Below, one piece after another: positions 12,673 to 44,978 of a stretch of 64,000 bases of DNA (positions are counted from its first letter, which is position 1; the number at the start of each line of letters is the position of its first letter). Origin of the DNA: Escherichia coli (lineage in GTDB: Bacteria > Pseudomonadota > Gammaproteobacteria > Enterobacterales > Enterobacteriaceae); assembly GCF_003334335.1 (NCBI RefSeq), contig NZ_QOWQ01000020.1; one strand, given 5' to 3'. Position numbers and translations under genes: made by a program. The notes below the pieces were generated by a model that made no database searches, had not been told where the DNA came from, and saw only the letters and a list, made by a program, of their open reading frames with translations.

Positions 12673-12688
12673 CTGGGTATATATACAG
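12673..12688 (-). promoter_or_regulatory. LexA (SOS) box in uvrD promoter
   Basis: Minus strand CTGTATATATACCCAG fits CTGT-N8-ACAG, ~60 bp upstream of uvrD ATG. Confidence 0.75.
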
Positions 12689-12697
12689 ATTTGCTGA

Positions 12698-13414
12698 TTA
12701 TATCAGCGAGGTCAGAGATGCCAACCGGGAAATTTCCAGATGCGGCAGTAAACGGCTGTCCCAGGTTTGCATCAGATCGCCATTTTCCGGTCTGATCCAA
12801 CAAGCCTGCATTCCGCTGCGAATTGCCCCACCCACGTCAGTGGTGAGATCGTCCCCAACATGTAAGATCTCGCCGATCGGCACGTTGAGTTTTTCCGCAG
12901 CCAAAAAGTACATATCGCTGAACGGTTTTGAGCGCCCGTGCGGGCCAGCGCGCAGCACAAACTCAAAATAATCCCCCAAACCAAACAGCTCCGGCTGGGC
13001 GTTACCGTTGGTGATCGCCACCAGCGGCCATTTCTTCGCCAGCTGTTTTAAGGTGTCGTGAGTTTGCTGCGGGACGTCGATTCGGCTGCGCCATTTGGCA
13101 AAGTTGATCATTGCTGCGTGTGCGCCTGCACTGGCTTCTTCGGCACTCAGCCCGGCGTCGAGCATCGCTTGTTCAATCGAACGAAAACGCCAGCGCGTCA
13201 CGTCGTGATAAATCTCGGGTTCCGCTTCCCGTACCGCCTGGCGCAGGCGTTGCAGATCTTCATTCTGGAAGCTGCGCAGCGCCGGATGATAATTTTGCAC
13301 AAAGGTAAGCGCCTCTCGCTCGGTGCGCAAAATCACCGGACGGTTATCGTAAAGGGTATCATCCAGGTCAAAGGTGAGCGCCGAGATGCGCCCCAAAGGC
13401 CGGTAAAAACGCAT
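12698..13414 (-). CDS. yigB: HAD-family FMN/5-amino-6-ribitylamino-uracil phosphate phosphatase YigB
   Basis: 238-aa ORF, DxD motif (FDLDDTLYD); start overlaps xerC stop (TAATG). Confidence 0.93.
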
Positions 13415-14310
13415 TATTTCCCCCGTTTGGCGCGTGGATGCGCCGCATCGTACACCGAGGCAAGGTGTTGAAAATCAAGATGAGTATAGATTTGCGTGGT
13501 GGAGAGGTTGGCATGACCCAGCAGCTCCTGCACACCACGAAGATCGCCGCTCGACTCCAGCATATGCGTGGCGAACGAGTGACGTAATTTATGCGGATGA
13601 ACGTGATTATTCAGCCCTTGTTTTATGCCCCATTCGGCAAAGCGTTTCTGCACATTACGCGCGGAGATACGCTTGCCCAGTTTCGACAGAAAAAGCGCGT
13701 CGTCTTCGCTACCAAACAGGTCGCGCAAATCAAGCCAGTGCTCAATCCACGCCACAGCGTTGCGACCAATCGGCAGGCGGCGCTCTTTGCAGCCTTTCCC
13801 CATAACCCACACTTCACCAGACTCCAGGTCGAGGTGTTTAATATCCAGCCCCACCAGCTCAGAAAGACGCAGACCCGCGCCGTACATCACTTCCAGCATT
13901 GCACGGTCGCGTACAGCGAGGGGATCATTGATATCAATATCCAGCAGCCGATTCATATCGTCGACGTCGATGTTTTTCGGCAGATGACGCGGCGCTTTCG
14001 GTGCCGAAACACCTTTCGCCGGGTTAGCTTTGAGTTCGTTCTGGCTGACCAGCCAGTCAAAAAAGCTACGTAGCGCAGAAAGCCGTAACGCCAGACTTGC
14101 TGCTCCCAGCCCTTTACGGCGACTGCGTACAGCAAAATTGCGCACCATCGTCACATCACATTGCTGCCAGCTTTGCAGGCCGTTTTCGCTGGCAAAATTG
14201 ATGATCGCCTCAAGCTGACGCTGGTAGTTAAGCAGGGTTATCGGGCTAAGCTGGCGCTCCACGCTCAGATAACGTAGGTAGCGTTCTACATCGGTGTGTA
14301 AATCGGTCAT
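13414..14310 (-). CDS. xerC: site-specific tyrosine recombinase XerC (chromosome dimer resolution)
   Basis: 298-aa [36 protein letters not shown]; catalytic RHSFATHML...[15 protein letters not shown]. Confidence 0.96.
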
Positions 14311-15014
14311 ACGCGTTCAATCCAACGCTCCAGAAGCTCCGGCAACATCAGCGCAATTTCATGAAGTAACTGCGTTCCTTGCCCTTGTTGATAGTGACTG
14401 GCATCGCGACTGGTAAACAGCACGACACCCAAATCAGCATCGCTTCCCAGCATCGACATCGCCACCGATCCCACCGCTTTCGCTTCCGGTAGCACCACCA
14501 GCAGCTCTGGTCCGTTAAGCGGCCCAAGATAGTGCTGTTCCTGCCCCAAACGCTGAATACGCAGCGGTTCGAAAGACTGACGGCTTAATGCCAGATGAGT
14601 GTGGTTCGACGGCGCACCTAAGCGCCAGCGATCCGGAAACAGGCGCAGACTCGCACCTGCCAGGCCGAGATCGCGCGCCCAGCGGTGAAAGCGCATCAGC
14701 ATATCGTCGAGACTGCTGGCGGCGGTGAGACTGCGCTGCAGGTAGAGTAGGCGATAAAACAGGCCTTCGTTGGCGATAGCCTGTTCCATCAACAGCGCCA
14801 TGTTCTCTTCCAGAACATGAATATGATTACGTGCGCGGGCCATGTGCCACTCGACCAACGAAACGGTGCCGCGTACCGGATGCGGCACACGTATCGCTTC
14901 TACTGCGCGCGCATTACGGATAAAAAACTCAGGATTTTTAATCAGATAATCGACAACCGCCCGGTCATCAAGCTCCGTGAGTGTTTCCTGCAGTTCTTCC
15001 CCTGGTTGCTTCAT
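14307..15014 (-). CDS. yigA: DUF484-family protein YigA, function unknown
   Basis: 235-aa ORF; 4-nt overlaps with dapF and xerC. Confidence 0.92.
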
Positions 15015-15835
15015 AGATGAATAAATCCGTCGTAGACATGTACCGCCGGGCCAGTCATATATAACGGGTGACCCGGACCTTTCCAGGCGATATCAAGACG
15101 ACCGCCGGGGAGTTCCACGCGTACTTCTTCGGCCAGCAAACCTTGCTGAATCCCTACTGCAACCGCCGCACACGCGCCGCTGCCGCAGGCCTGGGTTTCT
15201 CCTGCCCCACGCTCATAAACGCGTAAACGAATATGCTCGCGCTTAACCACTTGCATAAAACCGATATTGGCGCGCTCCGGAAAACGCTCGTGGCTTTCCA
15301 GAACAGGACCAAGCGTTTCTACCGCCGCGGTATCGACATCATCGACCTGAATCACGCAATGCGGATTTCCCATCGACACCACGCCGCATAAGATTGTCTG
15401 CTCGGCGGCGCGCATAATATAGGTCTTTTCCGCTTTGTTAGCGCGAAACGGCACGGCGGAAGGTTCGAAGTTGGGTTCGCCCATATTTACGCGGACCAGA
15501 TCATCATCGGTGACGGTCAGAACCATCCGCCCGTTGGCGGTGCTGACGCGGATATCACGCTTATTGGTCAGTCCTTTCAGACGCACAAAACGGGCAAAGC
15601 AGCGCGCACCGTTGCCGCACTGCGCCACTTCACTGCCATCAGCATTGAAAATGCGATAGTGAAAATCCAGTTCAGGATCATACGGCGGCTCAACCACCAG
15701 CAGTTGGTCAAACCCTACCCCCAGGTGCCGATCAGCCAGGCGACGAATCAGCTCCGGTGAAAAAAAGACATTCTGCGTTACCGCGTCGACGACCATAAAA
15801 TCGTTGCCAAGGCCATGCATTTTCGAGAACTGCAT
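15011..15835 (-). CDS. dapF: diaminopimelate epimerase
   Basis: Track ORF 275 aa; known protein starts [17 protein letters not shown] (second Met). Confidence 0.95.
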
Positions 15836-15871: not shown

Positions 15872-16075
15872 TTAGTAATTCACCTGGGATGGACCATCGC
15901 CAGTGGCGCGATCGTTTTTATCCGGCACCGTGGATTGCGTTTGCGTCTCTACCGGTTTGGTCGGCGGCGGTGCGTTTTTATCTGCAGGCGGGAAATAGAG
16001 CGGACCTTTCAGACCGCAGCCCGTCAGGCTGAAGAGAGTAAGTAATACAGTGAGTGCCTTAAACACGTTTTTCAT
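15872..16075 (-). CDS. lptM: small lipoprotein LptM (YifL)
   Basis: 67-aa ORF with lipobox MKNVFKALTVLLTLFSLTGC. Confidence 0.9.
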   Translation of the reverse strand: MKNVFKALTVLLTLFSLTGCGLKGPLYFPPADKNAPPPTKPVETQTQSTVPDKNDRATGDGPSQVNY

Positions 16076-16537
16076 TATGGATTGCCTGTAAAGTTCATCG
16101 CTTTCTGCTTTCTATCATCGCAGGAGAAGACGTAAAAGCAAGCGTTTAGCGACTCTTTATGAAGTCTGAAAAGTGAGGAAATGCTGCGAGTATAACGCTT
16201 ACTCGTGGGGATTTATGTTTTGCTGGTAGTTTCGTGATCGGCACCTCGCGCCAGGATGGCTTTATGCACTATCGCAATGTGGTTTGTTTGTTGTCTTTTT
16301 TAGTTCCGTCAGCGTGAGGATGCTCGCTCGGTAAACCTGATCATAATGTTTACCAGAAACAGGGAAAGACGTGGTGTAACTGCGCCCTAATGAAGAGACA
16401 AATCTTTCGCTACACAGAGACATCATTATTCCGGTGACGGATGAATCGTGCCGGAACGCAGCCGCAGAGGTGCAAACTTTGAAGCCCTGACCCCATGCCG
16501 CTATACTGCCGCCATCACTTAAAAACAGGATACAACA

Positions 16538-16897: not shown

Positions 16898-19444
16898 TCA
16901 CGAAAAATATTGCTGTAATAGCGGCGTATCGTGATCCTGATTGGCAGGCGGCATGTTACCGATAGATTTTGTGCGGAACGGAATCACCTGTTCACGACCA
17001 TCAACCTTCACAATCTGATAGAACTGCGGCAGGTTGAAGTTGATGAAGCTTGAGCCGTAGGTAAAACGGTCATGCGATGACGAGTAGAAGCGACTGACGT
17101 CACGTACCAGCTCCTCTTTGCTGCCTTCGCAGTGGTGATATACCTCAACCCGGTTGCTTTCGTCGAGAATGTAGATATTAAAGCCATTCTCGTCTTGCGT
17201 TTCTTCGAAAAAGAACTGGATGATCCCTTCGCTGGCAAAGCCGTCCACCACCGCCGGTAATTTGACGTGATTGGTTTCAACCTGCACTGACAGGCCGTGC
17301 AGTTTGTTATGCGAAATCGCGCCATAAAACTCGATGGCGTTTTCCAGTTTCTGTACCGATACATTCAGGCGTTCGAAGAACAACCCCCAGGTTTGACCAG
17401 AAACGCGCAGCGCCTTGAAACGCCCGGTTTCCTGGCGGGTGCTGGAAAGACGCAATTCAATACACTCAGAAACCAGTTGCTGCACGCGAGTACGAATTAA
17501 GCCGCGCAGATGCTGGCTATAACAGAAGACTTCCACGCTATCTGGCGGTGCGGCGTCCTGATGCATTTTGCCGAGAATAGTTTTCAGGGCTTCGATCATC
17601 GATTGCTCGCCGTTGAAGTGCAGCGTACGCACTTCGTTCCACGAGTTGCGGTACAGCAGGTCAACGCTACCTACCAGGCAATTTTGATTCTCGCCAAAGC
17701 TGAAGACATCCAGCTTACGGAAATCGAAATGCACCACCTGATTGCGGAACGCCGCTGTCGGGTCATATTCCAGGTTAACGATAATCGCCAGATGGCGGAT
17801 CTCACACGGGCTGTAGAGCGCCTTCGGTGTCGGTGCAGGTAAGCGCAGCGGGAAATGGTGCGACACGTCGGCGACCATCTCCTGTAACTTAGGCAAATCG
17901 ACAATGCCGTTACCTTTAATATACAAACGGGTGCGCGAGGTCAGCAGGCCGTTAAACCATGCCCACGCCACCAGTTTATTCAGGTAACGGTTATATTCCA
18001 GCGGCTGATGGCTGATGATCGACTCAATATTTGGCGCGCGGTTATACAGATACCAACCTGAACGGTTAGCCCGGCCCGGCGGCACATAAATAAAGGTCAG
18101 ATTCGGTTCCGAGAGATCGGGTGAAATCTGCGGGTTTACCAGCGTCACTTTACCTGGTAATGCTTCAAACGCGGCATACAGCTTACGCGTCAGCACGCCG
18201 ATATCCTGCGGACTGGCGGAGACGCTAAGGTTATTGCGACGCGCAAAGCGGATCAGATTACGGTAGCTCTGCATCATCGCGTCGAGCAACTCGTTGTGCG
18301 CCTCACGCACCTGATCAATCTTCCAGTTAGCGCGGTTATCGAGCATTGCCAGACGAGCTTCGTCCCAACCCCACTCGCTCACTAACTGGCTCAACACTGC
18401 GCGACGCCAGCCTACGCAGGCGCGTTCACGGCTGAGCTTTTCGCACACTTTTAAATAGAAGCAGCGACGTACTAAATCCAGACGGGTAAAATCTTCAATC
18501 GCCGTCAGGTATTCAGTAACACGCTCCAGCATCATGCAGTATGGATCGAGACCAAACGATACAATCTCGCCGTCGTGCAAACGCTGTTTGATATCTTTCG
18601 CCAGCAGACGTGGGTTCGGGTATTCCCAGGAATAGGCTTCCAGCAGCAGTGTTTTCAGTACCGCTTTGTATGGGGAATCGATACTCTTGTAGAGCTGCCA
18701 AAGGCTGGCACCAAAGTACTCTTCAGCAGAAAGCGAGCTTAAGCCACCGAGATCCAGCCATTCATTTGGCGTCAGCACGCCCTGCGCGTAAAGCGTCATC
18801 ACATAGTCGTCGTAATGCTCTTCTTCGTCGCACGGCACCATATTCCACAGAATACGCTTACCGGCGAGACGCACGGCGGTACGATAAAATTCGTCAAGCA
18901 GCAGTATATGCTGGGTGGAGCCACAATCTTCGCCCCCCAGGCTGCCGCTTTCATTATGACGGAAGCGGTTTTCATCAATCAGGAAGAAGCTGACTTCCAC
19001 ACCCAGCGAGGCGGCCCAGTTTTCCAGCAGGCTACATTTACGTTGTAGCAATTGGCGCTCTTCGCTATCGAGCCAGGATTGATGACAGACCCAGATATCC
19101 AGGTCAGAGGAACAACTTTGCCCTACGGACGAGGTGCTGCCCATGGTGTATACACCAGTAATTGGAAGCTCACCTTTCGGCGGATCCTGTACTGACATTC
19201 CACGATACAGTTCAAGCTCGTTCAGGTAGTGGCGTTGAGTTTCATCAGGCGTGTAAAGGCAAATGCCTTTGGGAACGTTACCATCAAGGTAACCCGGCAT
19301 TAGCGGATGGTGATAGTGCAACAATGTCGGCAGTAGACTGTAGACCTGTTGGAATGCAGGCCCCATAGCAGCAAGCGCGCGATCCACACGCAATTGATTT
19401 ATGGCATCCAGTCTCTGTTTCAGAGTCTCAATATAGAGGTACAA
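16898..19444 (-). CDS. cyaA: class I adenylate cyclase
   Basis: 848-aa ORF (M)[17 protein letters not shown]; start codon is TTG (revcomp of caa at 19442-19444). Confidence 0.97.
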
Positions 19445-21530: not shown

Positions 21531-22724
21531 ATGACGGAACAAGAAAAAACCTCCGCCGTGGTTGAAGAGACCAGGGAGGCCGTGGACACCACGTCACAAC
21601 CTGTCGCAACAGAAAAAAAGAGTAAGAACAATACCGCATTGATTCTCAGCGCGGTGGCTATCGCTATTGCTCTGGCGGCGGGCATCGGTTTGTATGGCTG
21701 GGGTAAACAACAGGCCGTCAATCAGACCGCCACCAGCGATGCCCTGGCTAACCAACTGACGGCATTGCAAAAAGCCCAGGAGAGCCAAAAAGCCGAGCTG
21801 GAAGGCATTATTAAGCAACAAGCTGCACAACTTAAGCAGGCGAATCGTCAGCAAGAAACGCTGGCAAAACAGTTGGATGAAGTCCAACAAAAGGTCGCCA
21901 CCATTTCCGGCAGCGATGCTAAAACCTGGCTGCTGGCTCAGGCCGATTTTCTGGTGAAACTCGCCGGACGGAAGCTGTGGAGCGATCAGGACGTCACGAC
22001 CGCTGCAGCGTTGCTGAAAAGTGCAGACGCCAGCCTGGCGGATATGAATGACCCGAGTCTGATTACCGTTCGTCGGGCAATTACCGATGATATCGCCAGC
22101 CTTTCTGCAGTATCGCAGGTGGATTATGACGGCATCATCCTTAAGCTTAATCAGCTTTCAAATCAGGTAGATAACCTGCGTCTGGCCGATAATGACAGCG
22201 ATGGTTCGCCGATGGATTCAGACGGTGAAGAGCTTTCCAGTTCCATCAGCGAATGGCGTATCAATCTGCAAAAAAGCTGGCAGAACTTTATGGACAACTT
22301 CATTACGATTCGCCGTCGTGATGACACCGCCGTACCGCTGTTAGCGCCAAATCAGGATATCTATCTGCGCGAAAATATTCGCTCTCGCCTGCTGGTCGCA
22401 GCACAAGCTGTACCGCGTCACCAGGAAGAGACTTATCGCCAGGCGCTGGAGAACGTCTCCACCTGGGTACGTGCTTACTACGATACTGATGATGCCACCA
22501 CCAAAGCGTTCCTCGACGAGGTGGACCAGTTAAGCCAGCAAAATATCTCGATGGATCTTCCGGAAACCCTGCAAAGCCAGGCGATGCTGGAAAAACTGAT
22601 GCAGACTCGCGTGCGTAACCTGCTGGCACAACCGGCAGCGGGGACAACGGAAGCTAAACCTGCACCTGCACCTGCACCTGCACCGCAAGCTGATACTCCG
22701 GCAGCCGCGCCGCAAGGAGAATAA
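21531..22724 (+). CDS. hemX: HemX membrane protein with C-terminal Pro-Ala repeat
   Basis: 397-aa ORF; N-terminal TM segment, coiled-coil region, PAPAPAPAP tail. Confidence 0.92.
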
Positions 22725-23970: not shown

Positions 23971-24177
23971 AAAAAAACGCCTGCTCTTATTACGGAGCAG
24001 GCGTTAAAACAGGTCTGTATGACAACAAGTGGGTGCTTCACTCAACGTTGTGTCCATGGTGTCTGATGAGGCATAAGCGACATCTGTCAGTGGACGATAA
24101 GCACCGTAAACGGCTCTGCGTCATTCCGGAGTTTATGAGGCACTAAGGCGAACATAAGAGATGGAATGAGCATCTAC
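23971..24177 (-). ncRNA. glmZ: GlmZ (SraJ/RyiA) small regulatory RNA
   Basis: Minus strand begins GTAGATGCTCATTCCATCTC and ends in GC-rich hairpin (AACGCCTGCTCCGTAATAAGAGCAGGCGTT) plus U7; sits in hemY-aslA spacer as known for GlmZ. Confidence 0.85.
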
Positions 24178-27797: not shown

Positions 27798-27874
27798 TGG
27801 TCGGCGAGAGAGGATTCGAACCTCCGACCCACTGGTCCCAAACCAGTTGCGCTACCAAGCTGCGCTACTCGCCG
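27798..27874 (-). tRNA. proM: tRNA-Pro (CGG)
   Basis: Reverse complement reads CGGCGAGTAGCGCAGCTTGGTAGCGCAACTGGTTTGGGACCAGTGGGTCGGAGGTTCGAATCCTCTCTCGCCGACCA. Confidence 0.97.
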
Positions 27875-27916
27875 AAATACTGCTTTTTGAATTTTTAGTT
27901 CAATTCTTTAAAGTCG

Positions 27917-28003
27917 TGGTGCGAGGGGGGGGACTTGAACCCCCACGTCCGTAAGGACACTAACACCTGAAGCTAGCGCGTCTACCAATTCCGCCACCTT
28001 CGC
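27917..28003 (-). tRNA. leuT: tRNA-Leu (CAG)
   Basis: 87-nt reverse complement GCGAAGGTGGCGGAATTGGTAGACGCGCTAGCTTCAGGTG...CACCA with long variable arm. Confidence 0.97.
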
Positions 28004-28023
28004 ATTGTCACAACTTCTAATAA

Positions 28024-28100
28024 TGGGGTGGCTAATGGGATTCGAACCCACGACAACTGGAATCACAATCCAGGGCTCTACCAACTGAGCTATAGCCACC
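28024..28100 (-). tRNA. hisR: tRNA-His (GUG)
   Basis: Reverse complement GGTGGCTATAGCTCAGTTGGTAGAGCCCTGGATTGTGATTCCAG...CCCCA. Confidence 0.97.
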
Positions 28101-28157
28101 ACTACAAATCTTGTTACGCGGTATTACTACCACCGCAGCTCAAGCGCCGGGACTAAA

Positions 28158-28234
<77 letters not shown>

Positions 28235-44518: not shown

Positions 44519-44848
44519 TTACGCCAGGTTAGCGTCGAGGAACTCTTTCAACTGACCTTTAGACAGTGCACCCACTTTGGTTGCCGCCACTTCACCGTTT
44601 TTGAACAGCAGCAGAGTCGGGATACCACGGATGCCATATTTCGGCGCAGTGCCAGGGTTTTGATCGATGTTCAGTTTTGCAACGGTCAGTTTGCCCTGAT
44701 ATTCGTCAGCGATTTCATCCAGAATCGGGGCGATCATTTTGCACGGACCGCACCACTCTGCCCAGAAATCGACGAGGATCGCCCCGTCCGCTTTGAGTAC
44801 ATCCGTGTCAAAACTGTCGTCAGTCAGGTGAATAATTTTATCGCTCAT
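44519..44848 (-). CDS. trxA: thioredoxin 1
   Basis: Track ORF 144 aa; known 109-aa protein starts [18 protein letters not shown] with WCGPC active site (ATG 44846-44848). Confidence 0.98.
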
Positions 44849-44978
44849 ATATAACTCCACAGGAATAAGCCTGGCGTGTTGGTTTCGTTGTTGGTGTAAC
44901 ATTAACCAACTAAAGGTTGACTTTATTTCACCGGATACGCTTTCGTAAAGCAATAGTAAGCTGATATTCTACCACACT

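Follow-up and report, generated by a model that had tools for sequence, protein, structure and literature searches.

The window, a 64,000-nt stretch of K-12-like Escherichia coli DNA, carries on its minus strand a run of five genes that opens with lptM (yifL; 15872-16075) and ends with yigB (12698-13414). LptM, a small lipoprotein that acts as a maturation chaperone of the LPS translocon, matched NCBIfam NF047847 at 44.5 bits (cut-off 27.7) and is annotated as such in RefSeq. It is followed by the diaminopimelate epimerase gene dapF (15011-15835, with the open reading frame extending to 15838; TIGR00652, 348.5 bits, and annotation), by yigA (14307-15014), by xerC (13414-14310), which encodes a 298-aa tyrosine recombinase, and by yigB, whose 238-aa product is a HAD phosphatase (5-amino-6-(5-phospho-D-ribitylamino)uracil phosphatase; NF008018, 494.8 bits, and annotation). 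DapF, YigB, and LptM each pass their family model, and the recombinase scored 368.2 bits against the XerC model TIGR02224 (cut-off 335.15) and 278.6 bits against the XerD model TIGR02225, under the cut-off of 329.6 for that model. Every one of the 5426 complete E. coli genomes contained the locus. The five genes make up the lptM-dapF-yigA-xerC-yigB operon, long known in E. coli and neither new nor unusual; Colloms and coworkers are said to have described it already in 1990. The operon has since been named in the literature, where its products are termed "of diverse functions," and Hu et al. (2009) grouped yigA with lysA, dapF, xerC, argP, yigB, and cyaA by genomic context. The initial annotation, which restated this operon and this context-based association, was placed on positions 13414-15014, an interval that spans xerC plus yigA.

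The four genes from dapF to yigB follow one another in the order, and overlap by the 4, 4, and 1 nt, that were first described, as read directly from the sequence. At the dapF/yigA junction (15011-15014, minus strand) the TGA stop of dapF lies on the ATG of yigA within an ATGA, a second ATGA stop/start joins yigA to xerC (14307-14310, minus strand), and xerC shares the single nucleotide 13414 with yigB in a TAATG (minus strand). These overlaps are real but ordinary: of the 33 adjacent same-strand gene pairs in the window's first 50 kb, 9 overlap, sharing 4 nt (six pairs), 1 nt (two pairs), or 23 nt (one pair), and the other overlapping pairs there include hemC/hemD and four junctions of the wec cluster. 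A Shine-Dalgarno site of its own precedes dapF (GGAG), and yigB has one (GGGGGA) inside the 3' end of xerC (13419-13424, minus strand; -10 to -5, -8.6 kcal/mol). No well-spaced site was found for yigA, where the best anti-Shine-Dalgarno pairing reaches -3.3 kcal/mol, or for xerC, where the best pairing (GGAG, -6.2 kcal/mol) lies about 22 nt upstream. Because stop-start overlaps coincide with the absence of well-spaced sites at exactly these two genes, translational coupling of yigA and xerC is plausible, and ribosomes arriving from dapF probably translate both, neither having a good ribosome-binding site. The four genes had been proposed to be cotranslated as one unit; such coupling is plausible for yigA and xerC, and yigB has its own site.

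The soluble, acidic YigA contains no cysteine and is a stand-alone GAF-domain protein. Its description as a DUF484 protein of 235 aa is borne out by an end-to-end match to Pfam PF04340 (E 4.7e-90, model positions 2-219 of 219) and by a score of 407.6 bits, above the cut-off of 254, against the NCBIfam YigA equivalog model NF008203. The AlphaFold2 model (pLDDT 91.2, pTM 0.74), when set against GAF-like folds as had been suggested, contains a GAF domain with the characteristic antiparallel beta-sheet backed by helices at residues 98-235 (14310-14723, minus strand), in which G164, S183, G196, and S202 are conserved. A long helix of 45 residues (residues 53-97; 14724-14858, minus strand), identified from the model and from conservation at R62, A79, and N82, precedes this domain. 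Conservation and predicted secondary structure delimit an N-terminal module at residues 15-57 (14844-14972, minus strand), composed of three short helices and a beta-hairpin with the family-specific motif YLxxxPDFF...LPHxxxGxVSLVExQ. No part of the DUF484 family is better conserved than this module, which is acidic (median net charge, -3); the family as a whole has a median pI of 5.5. A winged-helix DNA binder with a MerR-like layout was considered for the module and rejected because of this acidity and because Pfam gave no helix-turn-helix family for YigA, DUF484 being its sole match. For Salmonella YigA, an in vivo RNA crosslinking assay gave a negative result for RNA binding (bioRxiv 10.1101/466151).

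The GAF fold of DUF484 is already known from a structural genomics entry, PDB 3E98, which holds PA5279 of Pseudomonas aeruginosa, the closest solved relative of YigA at only ∼25 to 28% identity. The chains of this entry have ∼175 of 252 residues modelled and probably lack the conserved N-terminal module. The searchable literature yielded no study of the function of yigA, DUF484, or PA5279. Sensor GAF domains, such as those of NifA, histidine kinases, phytochromes, PDE2/5, and the N terminus of PtsP/EI-Ntr, are fused to an output domain (a kinase, AAA+, PTS enzyme, cyclase, or phosphodiesterase domain), whereas YigA stands alone, and its sole extra part is the unique 45-residue N-terminal module.

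The surroundings of DUF484 in other bacteria were surveyed at 176 loci from gamma- and betaproteobacteria, a taxonomically clumped sample in which each scan contributed the best 80 matches to one seed. Among the matches listed, dapF lies upstream of DUF484 at 166 of 169 assessable loci, and directly so at 95 of 95 mostly gammaproteobacterial and 71 of 74 Burkholderiales-like loci. An XerC-type gene lies downstream, again among the matches listed, at 111 of 156 assessable loci (53 of 95 mostly gammaproteobacterial and 58 of 61 Burkholderiales-like). These downstream recombinases have XerC scores far above their XerD scores and occur in Enterobacterales, Pasteurellales, Aeromonadales, Idiomarinaceae, Alteromonadaceae, Ferrimonas, Nitrosococcus, and Burkholderiales-like contigs; the PA5279 gene, too, presumably sits between dapF and xerC (sss). 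At 42 loci, representing at least 3 to 4 independent lineages among the matches listed, xerC has gone from the block while DUF484 has been kept, remaining between dapF and the HAD gene. In the gammaproteobacterial sample xerC alone was excised, and DUF484 was never parted from dapF. The 4-nt [AG]TGA overlap of dapF and DUF484 recurs at 44 of 90 loci of other bacteria, Nitrosococcus included; the DUF484/xerC junction is variable, lying between about -20 and +41 nt but reaching ∼700 nt in some betaproteobacterial loci. A single lineage, represented by loci L139 and L149, has DUF484 without dapF and without xerC. Neither word-index profile searches nor an AFDB50 fold search returned DUF484 outside gamma- and betaproteobacterial relatives.

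The more constant neighbour of DUF484 is dapF, and therefore the guilt by association with xerC on which the initial annotation rested its suggestion of a role in chromosome segregation or recombination control is only partly supported. Linkage to xerC in other taxa, the absence of which had been named as evidence against the idea, proved partial: xerC follows DUF484 at most of the assessable loci listed, and has left the block at least 3 to 4 times. The association is also not specific, since the operon carries lptM, (lysA), dapF, and yigB, of unrelated functions, and a role of YigA in chromosome segregation would be a guess. The useful new point is one of caution, namely, that context favours dapF at least as strongly as xerC. 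The block as a whole comprises lptM, (lysA), dapF, DUF484, and xerC, followed by the HAD gene or, in some lineages, hslVU. Firmicutes have the order codV (xerC-like)-clpQ-clpY (hslVU)-codY. CodY carries a C-terminal winged-helix DNA-binding domain and is encoded downstream of hslVU, whereas YigA is acidic, has no helix-turn-helix, and is encoded upstream of xerC; the resemblance between the two is probably coincidental.

We tentatively favour, at a probability of roughly 0.4, the reading that this is the known operon with coupled junctions and that YigA is a GAF sensor adaptor and not a core Xer component. From fold and context we infer a mechanism in which YigA would act as a small-molecule-sensing adaptor, binding a ligand in its GAF pocket and contacting a partner protein through the conserved acidic N-terminal module; such a protein would be neither an enzyme nor a nucleic acid binder. 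YigA would belong to an ancient beta/gammaproteobacterial block, lptM-lysA-dapF-DUF484-xerC-(HAD or hslVU), and would be neither core nor obligatory in Xer recombination, its adjacency to xerC being largely inherited operon structure. Because dapF is the most constant partner in the block, the diaminopimelate/lysine/cell wall precursor branch is no less likely than XerC to be its target. If YigA sensed diaminopimelate or a cell wall metabolite, it would add a regulatory layer to peptidoglycan precursor supply. DUF484 belongs to the core of all complete E. coli genomes that were examined and lies between two well-studied genes. Several observations weigh against this reading. Among the matches listed, an XerC-type gene does follow DUF484 at 111 of 156 assessable loci and at nearly all betaproteobacterial ones, and the dapF link could equally reflect operon inertia. 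A mirror-tree analysis of DapF, YigA, XerC, and YigB in 36 genomes, with UvrD as a control, gave partial correlations of 0.05 to 0.34 overall, and the lowest of all pairs was DapF-YigA (0.05). The lineage of L139 and L149, in which DUF484 has neither dapF nor xerC beside it, also fits poorly.

It is possible, if on the unlikely side, that YigA is functionally unrelated to either neighbour, sensing some unrelated signal within an operon that is a mosaic of housekeeping genes held together for the control of expression level or growth rate. The block does mix LPS translocon maturation (lptM), lysine and diaminopimelate synthesis (lysA/dapF), and recombination (xerC) with a riboflavin pathway phosphatase (yigB) and, in some lineages, hslVU, in keeping with the "diverse functions" of the literature. 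The covariation in the mirror-tree analysis is nonspecific, with no pair-specific signal found for any YigA pair in the 36 genomes, and one lineage has DUF484 without dapF or xerC. YigA is, moreover, the fastest-evolving protein of the block, its E. coli and Alteromonadales sequences being 27% identical compared with 66% for DapF and 51% for XerC. The near-invariant adjacency to dapF and the conserved 4-nt overlap, however, exceed typical operon drift, and in the gammaproteobacterial sample it was only xerC that was excised, DUF484 staying by dapF.

We regard as distinctly doubtful the proposal that YigA serves as a dedicated accessory protein or regulator of XerC, one that might, for example, restrain or license XerC-first strand exchange or tie Xer recombination to a metabolic signal, with the ATGA overlap providing for stoichiometric synthesis of YigA and XerC. 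Were YigA to modulate XerC, a textbook recombination system would gain a new regulator. The 4-nt yigA/xerC overlap, the absence of a Shine-Dalgarno site belonging to xerC, and the XerC-type gene found directly downstream at 111 of 156 assessable loci among the matches listed are consistent with such a factor, and the acidic YigA could plausibly bind a basic DNA-binding recombinase. Noncatalytic modulators of XerC/XerD of the kind proposed are known in the FtsK gamma domain, ArgR, PepA, ArcA, and XafT, none of which shows a sequence or fold relationship to YigA, for which Pfam gives DUF484 alone. None of them is known to be encoded by a gene of the xerC operon, and both the XerCD-dif/FtsK and the cer/psi reactions have been reconstituted without YigA. 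The block has repeatedly lost xerC yet kept DUF484, and the junction between the two genes is variable, with interruptions of ∼600 to 700 nt in some loci. A fused-chain AlphaFold2 model, YigA-(GGGGS)6-XerC built from 23 paired rows, did not predict a complex (pTM 0.40), which we count as a weak negative; the N terminus of YigA was not ordered in it, with a pLDDT no better than in YigA alone. The YigA-XerC partial correlation of 0.28 equals that of YigA-YigB (0.29) and falls below that of XerC-YigB (0.34). XerC occurs without DUF484 in most bacteria, and Moraxella is reported to have the same operon as lptM-lysA-dapF-xerC without the two extra open reading frames (PMC3735583).

A combination of these ideas, in which DUF484 would be a GAF adaptor that reads the state of diaminopimelate or peptidoglycan precursors and gates dimer resolution by XerC at the division septum, strikes us as very improbable. 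If DUF484 did bridge both processes, it would constitute a previously unknown checkpoint that makes chromosome segregation in beta- and gammaproteobacteria responsive to the supply of cell wall precursors. The idea that YigA is an enzyme on a GAF scaffold, like the free methionine-R-sulfoxide reductase YebR/MsrC, is close to refuted because E. coli YigA has zero cysteines and catalysis by that enzyme needs them; YigA further differs in its N-terminal module and long helix, shares only 13 to 15% identity with these enzymes, and is matched as well by many nonenzymatic GAF domains.

Several other candidates at the locus were set aside. An apparent DapF-DUF484 fusion (P0260, 515 aa, locus L086) most likely arose from a frameshift or an error of assembly, since the +1 frame has a canonical DapF C terminus (...AYRGEVEW*) with its stop overlapping an ATG. 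The presence of ruvB beside DUF484 at L139 and L149 was not taken as independent evidence for recombination: in L156, a related locus, the entire dapF-DUF484-xerC block has ruvB upstream of it, and the adjacency came from the loss of dapF and xerC. PADLOC and PHROGs returned zero matches that would point to a defence or phage origin of YigA, and a mobile-element origin was rejected because the ∼20 matches in the plasmid database were essentially all mislabelled chromosomes. A gSELEX peak between yigA and xerC (PMC8743547) is suggestive of a sigma-54 promoter inside yigA. We rejected this promoter, as the coding strand near the junction has no -24/-12-like motif with ≤2 mismatches; across the whole window such matches occur at chance level.

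Finally, xerC in this window carries a private SNP at position 13791 (minus strand) that changes codon AGC to TGC and so replaces Ser174 with Cys; the 61-mer around it had zero exact matches in complete E. coli genomes. The substitution lies two residues past Lys172, in the GKGSKER hairpin.

YigA is a full-length DUF484 protein of 235 aa, as initially annotated: PF04340 (DUF484) matches along its whole length with an E value of 4.7e-90, and NF008203 matches with 407.6 bits. Structure prediction, proposed at that stage for comparison with GAF-like folds, yielded a confident AlphaFold2 model (71-sequence alignment; pLDDT 91.2, pTM 0.74) in which an N-terminal module (helices 17-26, 30-33 and 35-40 and a hairpin at 42-52) is followed by a single 45-residue helix (residues 53-97) and a GAF domain (residues about 100-235). 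Conservation in DUF484 peaks in the N-terminal module (YLxxxPDFF...LPHxxxGxVSLVExQ) rather than in the GAF domain. The chains of 3E98, the structure of the Pseudomonas aeruginosa DUF484 protein PA5279, have only about 175 of 252 residues resolved. The family is of modest size: at E ≤ 0.001, 1.84 billion clusters yielded 864 representatives, and all named matches are gamma- or beta-proteobacterial. Because the family is acidic (median pI 5.5, median N-module charge -3) and Salmonella YigA showed no RNA crosslinking in vivo (bioRxiv 10.1101/466151), YigA is unlikely to be a nucleic-acid binder. It contains zero cysteines, which rules out a mechanism of the type used by the GAF-fold free methionine-R-sulfoxide reductase (fRMsr), and searches of PADLOC, PHROGs and a plasmid database led us to reject a plasmid, phage or defence origin. 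No functional study of YigA was found in the literature searched.

The window is E. coli DNA: for a query of 3.6 kb spanning the locus, identity was ≥95% in 5426/5426 complete E. coli genomes and about 100% in K-12 MG1655. All genes of the operon lie on the minus strand, in the order lptM (15872-16075), dapF (15011-15835), yigA (14307-15014), xerC (13414-14310) and yigB (12698-13414), with uvrD next downstream, and the four neighbours of yigA pass the LptM, DapF, XerC and YigB family models, respectively. The overlaps first described are present at each junction, reading ATGA at dapF/yigA (15014..15011), ATGA at yigA/xerC (14310..14307) and TAATG at xerC/yigB, where base 13414 is common to both genes. 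They are not unusual: 9 of the 33 same-strand neighbour pairs within the window's first 50 kb overlap, six by 4 nt. dapF has a GGAG Shine-Dalgarno site and yigB a strong one (GGGGGA at -10..-5); well-spaced sites were found at neither the yigA nor the xerC start, and these two genes would therefore be the likeliest to need termination-reinitiation at their ATGA junctions. The operon was reportedly first described by Colloms et al. in 1990. A genomic-context module already joined yigA with lysA, dapF, xerC, yigB, argP and cyaA (Hu et al. 2009), so the association is known in substance.

We examined synteny in DUF484 loci from other bacteria (L numbers). The first sample held 96 mostly gammaproteobacterial loci: 80 genome loci, the best 80 matches to an Idiomarina-centred alignment, and 14 loci of diverse cluster representatives together with Pasteurella and Aeromonas records. 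dapF lay directly 5' of the DUF484 gene in 95/95 assessable loci, and a XerC-type gene, scoring far higher as XerC than as XerD, directly 3' in 53/95; in 42 loci HAD/yigB followed directly without xerC, and one locus was undetermined. The loci without xerC comprise Colwelliaceae together with L044, L094, L097 and L099. For L044, L097 and L099, the nearest relatives of DapF are found in xerC-bearing genomes, and the L094 DapF is nearest to that of L099, affinities which imply that xerC was lost from the block independently at least three to four times. Among 80 Burkholderiales-like metagenome loci (the best 80 matches to one seed), dapF was 5' in 71 of 74 assessable loci and xerC 3' in 58 of 61 (47 adjacent, 11 after a spacer of 176-713 nt). 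The spacer measures about 600-700 nt in L104, L112, L116, L119, L121, L125, L126, L137 and L180; ORFs in that of L104 matched no NCBIfam model. The 4-nt dapF/DUF484 overlap is kept in 44/90 loci, and the junction between DUF484 and xerC varies. A protein that seemed to join DapF to DUF484 is most likely an artefact of a frameshift or of assembly.

Within the Burkholderiales-like sample, one lineage (L139/L149, metagenome contigs) kept the DUF484 gene with dapF and xerC both missing. There the gene lies 3' of ruvB and a 233-aa ORF, which matched no family, and 5' of a MuiA-family gene in convergent orientation. The 233-aa ORF has homologues 5' of dapF in the related loci L115, L130, L156 and L176. 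The layout is a remnant of the ruvB-X-dapF-DUF484-xerC order present in L156. The literature served as a third sample: in Moraxella catarrhalis the reported gene order is lptM-lysA-dapF-xerC, with the two extra ORFs absent (PMC3735583). The ancestral block was probably lptM-lysA-dapF-DUF484-xerC-(HAD or hslVU). hslV-hslU follows xerC in several proteobacterial lineages (L086, L089/L090, L098). The Firmicutes operon codV(xerC-like)-clpQ-clpY-codY, whose last gene encodes a GAF-domain protein, is alike in combining a xerC-hslVU link and a GAF protein in one operon; the arrangement thus occurs in two phyla.

The initial annotation tied YigA to XerC through guilt by association, an inference that finds partial support. 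The linkage is indeed common and ancient, and it is neither universal nor specific. YigA may alternatively be a XerC-specific regulator; two further analyses, both weak as tests, did not support a specific partnership. In a YigA-(GGGGS)6-XerC single chain (AlphaFold2, 23 paired rows) both parts folded well with a pTM of 0.40, a value that would be expected for independent bodies, and the YigA N terminus gained no confidence over YigA alone. Mirror-tree partial correlations, with UvrD as the control, were 0.28 for YigA-XerC, 0.29 for YigA-YigB, 0.34 for XerC-YigB and 0.05 for DapF-YigA. The logic of genomic context favours dapF at least as strongly as xerC; the function of YigA may also be unrelated to either gene. 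With moderate-to-low confidence, we propose a stand-alone adaptor role for YigA. Made through coupling to dapF, it would sense a ligand with its GAF domain and pass the signal to a protein partner through its conserved acidic N-terminal module, without being an obligatory Xer component.

A gSELEX study placed a peak for RpoN/NtrC between yigA and xerC (PMC8743547); we found no sigma-54-like motif in that region. The uvrD promoter region (12673-12724, minus) is set into the 3' end of the operon, where a near-consensus sigma-70 promoter (TTGGCA-16-TATAAT, upstream TG, 11/12 matches) overlaps the yigB stop codon, with a LexA-box-like palindrome, CTGTATATATACCCAG, just downstream.

Compared with the MG1655 record NZ_CP032667.1, the window is K-12-like and not identical, with 12 SNPs and 3 small insertions. 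The SNP at 13791 (xerC, minus) changes codon 174 from AGC (Ser) in MG1655 to TGC (Cys). Residue 174 belongs to the conserved hairpin GK172GSKER, two positions past Lys172, and is S, N, R, A or G in homologues. A 61-nt query centred on 13791 matched 5410 complete E. coli genomes, none of them exactly (best 98.4%). Ser174Cys may represent a private allele, a mutation that arose in the laboratory or an error in sequencing. The 11 further SNPs are at 17885, 21065, 23872, 28246, 29186, 30414, 32019, 37089, 39718, 49329 and 55805. The insertions are a 12-nt repeat unit, TGCACCTGCACC, in hemX (22673-22684), one T at 60420 and a 2-nt AT inside ilvG (59074-59075), which might restore the reading frame, since K-12 ilvG is frameshifted.

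Two pseudogenes are annotated by RefSeq: a DKNYY-family fragment with a frameshift and an internal stop in the lptM-cyaY gap (16234-16412, plus) and, between rep and ppiC (about 50140-50590, plus), a PemK/MazF-family toxin gene with a frameshift. At 60071-60363 (minus), Rfam gives a 157-bit match to RF02744 ('Soft rot Enterobacteriaceae Rev39 5'UTR'), apparently over the leader region (ilvL/ilvX) of ilvGMEDA. Rfam also matched expected RNA genes and elements: the GlmZ sRNA (23971-24177), the trxA 5'-UTR thermometer (44819-44918), a four-tRNA cluster (27801-28234), and the tRNAs and 5S rRNA of an rrn operon end (63583-63910).
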